This document shows, one piece after another, positions 51,804 through 52,269 of a stretch of 64,000 nt of DNA (the first letter of the stretch is position 1; the number at the start of each line of letters is the position of its first letter). Below the pieces are notes generated by a model, which had not been told where the DNA came from, did not search any database, and saw nothing but the letters and a program-made list of their open reading frames with translations. Source of the stretch: Eledone cirrhosa (lineage: Eukaryota); assembly GCA_964016885.1 (NCBI GenBank), contig OZ024757.1:13206001-13270000 (forward strand), read 5' to 3'. A program made the translations under genes and the position numbers.

Positions 51804-51804
<1 letters not shown>

Positions 51805-51841
51805 TAATATAAGATCAAAAGATGGTTAAAAGAGTTCCAAG

Positions 51842-51912
51842 TATTTTATTATGCGCATTTCAAAAACAAATATCATCGTGTGATGATATCTGCGTTTTCA
51901 TCAGATAAAATA
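51842..51912 (-). ncRNA. Type I minimal hammerhead ribozyme (mirror copy)
   Basis: Reverse complement of 51995-52065, with TCATCAG at 51898-51904. The two differences fall in the stem II loop. Confidence 0.85.
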
Positions 51913-51994
51913 GGGATACATGATATGTATCAACATATGTTGATTTAAAACTTCACTATTCACAAGTGTTTTTAAGCTTCATATCATGTATCCC

Positions 51995-52065
51995 TATTTT
52001 ATCTGATGAAAACGCAGATATCATCTCATGATGATATTTGTTTTTGAAATGCGCATAATAAAATA
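51995..52065 (+). ncRNA. Type I minimal hammerhead ribozyme
   Basis: Stem I is TATTTTAT (51995-52002) / ATAAAATA (52058-52065). The core CTGATGA is at 52003-52009. Stem II has 16 positions, AAACGCAGATATCATC / GATGATATTTGTTTTT. GAAA is at 52046-52049, and stem III is the palindrome ATGCGCAT. The predicted cut is after A52057. Confidence 0.85.
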
Positions 52066-52269
52066 CTTGGAACTCTTTTAACCATCTTTTGATCTTATAT
52101 TATTTATACTCCAGTCCTACAAACTGTAGAGTGCTACTTATCCGATATTTGCATTGCTTTATTGTGGTACAATAAAACTCACCTCCTACATATATGAGAT
52201 ATAGAGAGATCTCTTTCTTAGGTCCTCTCTTTCTATCTCTCCATACTAGCATATTAAACAATGATGATG

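Follow-up and report, generated by a model that had tools for sequence, protein, structure and literature searches.

Two complete hammerhead ribozyme motifs, one on each strand and pointing away from each other, lie within a single fold-back at 51804–52190 of a 64-kb stretch of DNA (referred to below as the window). The question raised by this locus is whether such a pair represents a unit in its own right or merely the trace of a peculiar mode of insertion. The former reading, including the idea of a surprising design, is not upheld: according to PMC4209133, opposite-strand hammerhead pairs have already been ascribed to truncated Penelope-like elements. Overall, the twin arrangement is most likely a by-product of Penelope-like insertion that has been described before, and the locus itself is ordinary; the family to which it belongs is considered below along with the less probable explanations of its structure.

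Architecture of the Fold-Back

The alignment of the arms bore out the initial description of a fold-back with 124-nt arms (51804–51927 and 51980–52103), which cannot be extended by even a single base either way. The arms differ only at two positions, 52026 and 52029 in the right arm, both situated in loop II of the hammerhead motif. The direct arm (51980–52103, + strand), taken together with 51934–51979, makes up a probable terminal repeat (pLTR) of ca. 170 nt. It is followed, on this side only, by a tail of 87 nt (52104–52190, + strand), close to the one-sided extension of ~85 bp noted initially; the coverage of the repeated family, described below, stops at ~52190–52195. The left arm (51804–51927, − strand) is an inverted partial copy, identical to 51980–52103 except for the two loop II positions and devoid of the tail.

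The stretch between the arms had been regarded as a neutral spacer, a view that has to be abandoned: 51929–51944 is a perfect 16-bp palindrome, and 51934–51979 (+ strand) is the 5′ part of the direct copy, belonging to the repeated family and covered in three sequencing runs (X1, X4, and X6). The palindrome is centred on 51936/51937, where the family coverage starts. Read from this centre, the − strand matches the + strand for 11 nt and then skips to 51980. Hence, the true point of inversion is 51936/51937, and the inverted copy lacks the 35 nt at 51945–51979.

Upstream, the inverted arm abuts a microsatellite, (TA)n followed by (GATA)n (51691–51803), the likely target of the insertion. No target-site duplication is readable at the fold-back, the flanks of which are simple repeats. 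Near the 3′ end of the tail, an 8-bp hairpin (52158–52176, + strand) overlaps AATAAA at 52171, and no family variant is listed there; the two represent a candidate 3′ recognition or polyadenylation signal.

As far as the coding potential is concerned, 51804–52262 is free of ORFs longer than 53 codons, and no GIY-YIG-type motif is present in 44000–64000. A simple pattern scan detected none of the RNA polymerase III A or B boxes expected of a tRNA-derived SINE on either strand of 51934–52195.

The Hammerhead Motif

The motif on the + strand (51995–52065) comprises stem I, CUGAUGA, helix II, GAAA, and AUGCGCAU, with the predicted cut after A52057. Stem I is formed by 51995–52002 and 52058–52065 (8/8 pairs), the core CUGAUGA is located at 52003–52009 and GAAA at 52046–52049, and the self-complementary AUGCGCAU at 52049–52056. 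Thus arranged, the motif displays the hallmarks of type I hammerheads, i.e., CUGANGA, GAAA, UH, and three helices, open at stem I. Its mirror (51842–51912, − strand; core at 51904–51898, predicted cut after 51850) was matched by the descriptor on the − strand, and its positions were mapped from the right arm. The descriptor detected these two motifs and no others across the 64 kb, and not one of the 300 dinucleotide shuffles of 50700–64000 gave even a single hammerhead match. The presence of a complete type I hammerhead in each arm, one per strand, is, in this respect, confirmed.

Helix II is formed by 52010–52025 and 52030–52045 and closed by a 4-nt loop. It had been presented as a stem of 16 positions: the unusual length stands, with the correction that 15 of the 16 positions are paired (two of the pairs being G-U) and one is a C-U mismatch. 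The label of a “minimal” hammerhead proved inappropriate, since helix III of the motif consists of 2 bp and a 4-nt palindromic loop. In the monomer, this 2-bp helix costs 2.9 kcal/mol (pair probability of 0.001), and the 8-bp duplex formed by helix III between two copies is predicted at −10.5 kcal/mol. An unstable monomer helix combined with a stable duplex would fit the cleavage of multi-unit precursors by dimers, as judged from the computed energies.

The check with covariance models suggested by the initial annotation turned out negative: no Rfam hammerhead family was listed up to E = 10 in the scans of 51000–53000 and 51975–52085. The top Rfam matches were microRNA models on the hairpin, far below their gathering scores. 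The miss is likely due to the long helix II. A hammerhead pattern scan yielded 0 matches in viral contigs and 0 in prokaryote genomes; ten matches in metagenomes were all rejected, none of them showing more than three contiguous pairs in stem I or II.

A Highly Repeated Family in Public Contigs

Public contigs were aligned to 51895–52262 from 4 of the 13 listed runs (X1, X4, X6, and X8); the nine runs left out were X2, X3, X5, and six with a small or zero share, namely those of organisms D, F, and G plus three RAD runs. X4 and X6 originate from other studies and are labelled with different organism codes, and X1 is perhaps not independent of the window. Individual ends and joints are described from 17 of the 109 loose ends and 25 of the 4,087 pieces, and no listed contig spans the whole stretch.

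In this interval, the element was matched by 3,914 contigs in X1, 55 in X4, 34 in X6, and one in X8. By identity, the X1 contigs were divided into 962 (≥99%), 1,542 (95–99%), 1,206 (90–95%), and 204 (<90%). The cover of the family extends from ~51934 to ~52195, with X4 and X6 confined to about 51934–52200. Overall, the element is a single member of a highly repeated family that extends over about 51934–52190. The 5′ boundary of the family at 51934 owes part of its position to the reference, which at this point becomes the inverted arm of this very copy; upstream of 51934, 23 X1 contigs (agreement of 0.76) and one X6 contig continue in other sequence.

The copies of the family stop either around 52195 or around 52090–52108, for the most part within (TA)n or (CA)n. 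Summed depth, which is not a copy number, drops 2.4-, 2.0-, and 2.4-fold across 52103 in X1, X4, and X6, respectively; its 28-fold fall at the 3′ end in X1 is, with the same reservation, a hint only. Six of the seven listed loose ends behind 52090–52195 continue into (TA)n or (CA)n. The depth step at 52103, together with the loose ends, indicates that family copies end either at the end of the arm or at the end of the tail.

Inversions also occur in other copies. In one X6 contig, 51936 is immediately preceded by the reverse of the final 15 nt of the tail, with (TA)n in front of them, so that the fold-back layout is the same but the inverted arm is far shorter. A change of strand at 52030/52121 occurs in one X1 contig. 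None of the seven joints listed is of the head-to-tail kind, which would connect the 3′ end to the 5′ start. The depth in X1 is practically the same on the two sides of the cut site (1.61 million at 52053 vs. 1.60 million at 52067), so the inserted copies are apparently unbroken there.

Two more observations were made in the same material. A loose end in X1 at 51934–51989 suggests copies with the 5′ 56 nt repeated head to tail. The only contig of X8, a run with yet another organism code, has a depth of 2, covers only the tail side (52087–52155), and bears 201 unrelated letters upstream; it is either a truncated copy or a different element with a common 3′ end.

Family Variants and the Question of Editing

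The listed family variants spare all 12 core positions and all 16 stem I positions, and the free position N7 (52007) varies. The long helix II (52010–52045, + strand) harbors seven common variants, five of which are A/G. All seven keep the pairing on the + strand, and only two of the seven do so on the − strand; the corresponding P = 0.0096 (transitions only) is soft, as every change affects just one side of the stem, the reference for counting is this single copy, and some of the variants are linked in subfamilies. Of the covariation of stems that was anticipated among genomic copies, the retention of pairing was observed in the 7/7 helix II variants; two-sided compensatory changes were not, the changes in the stems being all one-sided, of the G-U type. 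The invariant core, the variable N7, and the kept pairing of helix II indicate that the hammerhead is maintained in the family, with the said softness of the variant statistics.

The A/G variants are crowded in helix II (5 of 15 purine sites vs. 1 of 93 outside; P = 1.5 × 10^−4, post hoc), whereas the C/T variants are not enriched there (2 of 17 vs. 9 of 132 outside; P = 0.36). On the ribozyme strand, each of the five A/G sites in helix II faces a U. The major letter is A at 52010, 52017, 52020, and 52036 in every one of the three informative runs, and at 52014 in two of them. This crowding may stem from editing of the RNA form that reverse transcription then made permanent; the tolerance of G-U pairs along with founder effects in subfamilies offers a plainer reading. 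With five of the seven helix II variants being A/G, editing, rather than selection, could also underlie the kept pairing. Whether editing or G-U tolerance is at work, the pattern presupposes a + strand helix of RNA and so counts against a DNA transposon.

A far-reaching reading of the family would be that of a stand-alone and very abundant non-coding Penelope satellite of ~260 nt, equipped with a new hammerhead with a long helix II and carrying A-to-I edits written into the genome by reverse transcription. Taken as a whole, this proposition is rather doubtful. If true, the copies of the family would constitute a heritable and countable genomic record of editing on retroelement RNA; a literature search outside the subscription journals found no reports on editing fixed in hammerhead retroelements.

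Origin of the Twin Arrangement

A head-to-head inverted repeat, a palindrome at the junction, a one-sided tail, and hammerheads on opposite strands have all been described for Penelope-like elements, making the insertion of a truncated or solo terminal repeat the most likely explanation of the locus. Specifically, it is believed (with a rough probability of 0.8) to be a dead-end insertion of a Penelope-like terminal repeat, i.e., a 5′-truncated or solo pLTR of ~170 nt followed by the 87-nt tail, its twin motifs having arisen by copying back. A likely copying of the repeat back on itself in the course of the insertion would explain why the two motifs point away from each other. That one arm probably served as the template of the other is suggested by the minority letter at 52067, present in both arms where the family mostly has A (82%, 100%, and 72% of depth), and by their agreement at 15 of the 16 family-variable arm positions.

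The insertion could have proceeded as follows. An endonuclease and a reverse transcriptase supplied from elsewhere would nick the AT-rich microsatellite target, and the reverse transcriptase would make a copy of an RNA that had not been cleaved, running from 52190 to ~51934. The new strand might then prime itself at the palindrome centred on 51936/51937 (predicted as a DNA hairpin at −3.3 kcal/mol), skip 51945–51979, and copy 51980–52103. Finally, the copied-back strand would join the upstream (GATA)n/(TA)n tract via its AT-rich end. The hammerhead would be the cargo of the family, cutting multi-unit precursor transcripts, presumably best as a dimer via the self-complementary helix III. We infer the source of the enzymes, the self-priming, and the cleavage by dimers, as well as the masking discussed in the next section.

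The Penelope-like origin proposed in the initial annotation is supported by the anatomy, the repetition, and the variable ends in microsatellites, all matching published elements. The features of a Penelope pLTR found here include a hammerhead with a palindromic helix III, a shorter head-to-head copy with a junction palindrome, a one-sided tail, and microsatellite or AT-rich ends. Against this reading stand the tail of 87 nt vs. 30–40 bp in published cases, the long helix II, the absence of G10.1-C11.1, and the absence of a link to RT/GIY-YIG. In each structural test run, the locus acts like a Penelope pLTR insertion; on the sequence evidence, its membership is putative, the link to RT + GIY-YIG lacking from the window. 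As to the partial head-to-tail tandems of such elements, none occurs among the seven listed joints, and one loose end hints at a local repetition of the 5′ part.

The initial annotation also entertained a retrozyme-like element. On this account, the locus would harbor a non-LTR retrozyme monomer, a unit of ~260 nt spreading via tandem arrays and circular RNA, its inversion being a later or incidental event. The account finds some support in PMC7229834, where units of 170–400 nt, type I hammerheads, and low GC are characteristic of such elements, and where the retrozymes of invertebrates typically have a helix III of 2 bp closed by a tetraloop. Moreover, monomers are common and derived from pLTRs, as stated in 10.64898/2026.07.22.740005, and the coverage of the family has sharp ends. 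Still, the joints tell otherwise: 0 of the 7 listed run from the 3′ end into the 5′ start, the listed 3′ loose ends enter microsatellites rather than a next unit, and the 64-kb window contains no second unit. The equal depth on both sides of the cut site in X1 (1.61 vs. 1.60 million) is a further point against the retrozyme, which we consider improbable.

MITEs and other fold-back DNA transposons are non-coding and feature long inverted arms and a TA-rich target. A DNA element of this kind, with a hammerhead captured in its terminal inverted repeats, would account for the inverted arms of 124 nt, the lack of an ORF, and the TA-rich target of the present insertion. It is nevertheless very unlikely: the family runs 87 nt past one arm, its ends are not fixed, the inversion junctions of other copies differ, and the strand-biased variants in the stem point to an RNA stage. 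Of the pattern named at the outset as diagnostic of a MITE, i.e., copies always symmetric with a fixed target-site duplication, the symmetry is not borne out by the listed contigs; the ends differ, mostly lie in microsatellites, and the inversions occur at other junctions. Unlike MITEs, the fold-back has asymmetric and variable ends, its structural variation is biased to one strand, and its ribozyme core is intact.

The inverted arm might also be an artefact of assembly or a library fold-back, the genome possessing the direct copy only. The near-identity of the arms would be expected in such a case; besides, the stretch is not bridged by any of the listed contigs, and none of the four runs covers the right flank (52207–52262), although a gap in cover proves nothing. 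At the same time, the arms differ at two loop positions, the inverted arm is devoid of 35 nt and stops at 52103, where other family copies stop too, and the layout matches a natural structure described for Penelope-like elements. An artefact is, accordingly, scarcely to be expected, and the insertion of a Penelope-like terminal repeat is retained as the preferred reading.

Predicted Folding of the Transcripts and the Surroundings of the Insertion

Whichever strand it comes from, a transcript reading through the fold-back is predicted to adopt a 124-bp hairpin in which both hammerhead motifs are blocked. The read-through RNA folds at −213 kcal/mol (predicted), and the five hammerhead pairs tested each have a predicted probability below 0.01 for starts at 51804–51880. 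The masking postulated in the initial annotation is, thus, reproduced by the folding model. Its counterpart, a spacer-started transcript acting as a ribozyme, fares less well: for an RNA starting at 51934, the predicted probability of stem I amounts to 0.6–0.96 at 20 °C, but just 0.12–0.25 at 37 °C. The low value is explained by 51963–51973 competing for the 3′ strand of stem I. With the common letters of the family at 51990 and 52067, the predicted probability rises to 0.44–0.88 at 37 °C. Taken together, the poor predicted stem I and the masking suggest that this copy is likely inert. The common letter at 52067 had pointed to a distal extension of stem I (51984–51988 with 52066–52070), which was rejected, its probability being 0.09–0.23 once the common letter at 51990 was added. 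Wherever transcribed, fold-back copies like 51804–52190 would supply long double-stranded RNA.

The element is situated 459 nt downstream of GTAAGT at 51345, in line with the earlier figure of ~460 bp after a splice donor. This candidate donor follows directly an exon-like ORF of 81 codons (51102–51344, + strand) with a hydrophobic N-terminus and three 39-nt repeats, which may plausibly be a putative host exon; its peptide has no homologue among proteins of 143–2000 aa and no Pfam family. A host-adopted switch, with the antisense arm masking an intronic ribozyme and cleavage freed by a start in the spacer or by editing of the hairpin, would agree with the complete masking predicted in read-through RNA and with the position 459 nt after a plausible donor, but merits hardly any credence, as the almost identical arms point to a likely young insertion, the structure is what the insertion mechanism gives anyway, the letters of this copy at 51990 and 52067 lower the predicted stem I (0.12–0.25 vs. 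0.44–0.88, 37 °C), and the host gene is itself only putative.

Several other features of the window deserve mention. A stretch resembling a 3′ splice site (52072–52114, + strand; 15 of 20 pyrimidines before AG at 52113–52114) spans the boundary of the arm and the tail; it could serve as a cryptic acceptor for the host, for which no matching donor was identified. Stretches similar to each other occur at 58270–58380 and 59250–59560, the latter comprising nine 21-nt repeats, and may represent a minisatellite or additional exons of the host gene. The exon-like ORF is immediately preceded by about 5 kb (45634–50685) of (TGG)n and then (GTA)n. Farther upstream lies a strand-skewed 44-kb satellite (81–43970) of short C/A-rich units with an inverted block at ~10500–11300 and an apparent higher-order duplication of 13.2 kb, the same arrays appearing at 250 and 13471.

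Downstream of the fold-back, broken fragments of LINE-type reverse transcriptase are scattered on both strands at 52936–57106, including an RVT_1 match at 56040–56393; the fragments at 52936–57100 were rejected as a Penelope partner in view of the missing GIY-YIG motif. A second AT-rich fold-back (57683–57780; arms of ~40 bp, 87% self-match over 99 nt, −40.7 kcal/mol) is devoid of the hammerhead core and is possibly a decayed inverted insertion of another family.

Comparison with Known Systems

Literature searches outside the subscription journals and Repbase/Dfam yielded no paper on this repeat family. A squid genome paper gives 235 Rfam hammerhead matches, and the words “hammerhead” and “ribozyme” are absent from the main text of two cephalopod repeat papers. 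The comparison is made with better-described elements.

Head-to-tail repeats and circular RNA are the defining traits of retrozymes in PMC7229834 and 10.64898/2026.07.22.740005. Like the animal non-LTR retrozymes described there, the element is short, non-coding, and low in GC, bears a type I hammerhead, and is most likely derived from a Penelope pLTR. In contrast to retrozymes, its copy is arranged head to head, and a head-to-tail unit is absent from the window and from the listed joints.

A class of Penelope hammerheads with a small palindromic helix III was described by Cervera and De la Pena (2014; PMC4209133). The same source reports opposite-strand hammerhead pairs 100–700 bp apart in Schistosoma mansoni, the pairs being those ascribed to truncated Penelope-like elements. 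Similar to the hammerheads presented in that text, the motif is of type I, has the CUGANGA core, fits the GAAAN-palindrome-NUH consensus, and reveals no clear loop-loop contact. It departs from them in helix II, with 15 pairs here vs. a maximum of 8 in 56 examples (an eye count; the descriptor used there limited the stem length), in stem I, with 8 bp vs. mostly 2–6, and in the occurrence of A-U or G-U in place of the usual G10.1-C11.1. For viral type I hammerheads, a helix II referred to as “long” comprises 6 bp in PMC13725137. The family, thus, adds a hammerhead with a helix II twice the published Penelope length and invisible to Rfam.

As for the layout of the insertion, the Adineta vaga elements Pen2, Pen2a, and Pen3a possess pLTRs of 193–218 bp with an adjacent shorter inverted pLTR and a 15-bp overlap, as outlined in PMC3846280. 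In the same paper, palindromes of 18 and 38 bp at the 5′ ends of rotifer Penelope pLTRs are read as self-priming, the tail is optional, and solo pLTRs are mentioned. The Naiad scheme (10.1101/2021.04.23.441226, PMC8557442) includes an inverted 5′-truncated copy, a one-sided tail of 30–40 bp, a bias to microsatellites, and duplications that are often unreadable; an intron carried by Penelope elements across the pLTR boundary is also noted in 10.1101/2021.04.23.441226.

The locus resembles endonuclease-bearing Penelope-like elements, as described in these texts, in its AT-rich or microsatellite target and in the duplication being often unreadable. It differs from the Adineta vaga pLTR units in that the insertion has no ORF or coding partner, its tail measures 87 instead of 30–40, and 35 internal nt are missing. 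With these units it shares a terminal repeat of ~170–220 bp, a shorter head-to-head copy, a palindrome or overlap at the junction, and a one-ended tail. Hence, the locus provides a clean example of how the inverted repeat and the tail may arise, i.e., by self-priming, a point left open in the papers, and bears on the role of the hammerhead in Penelope-like elements, likewise open in the literature.
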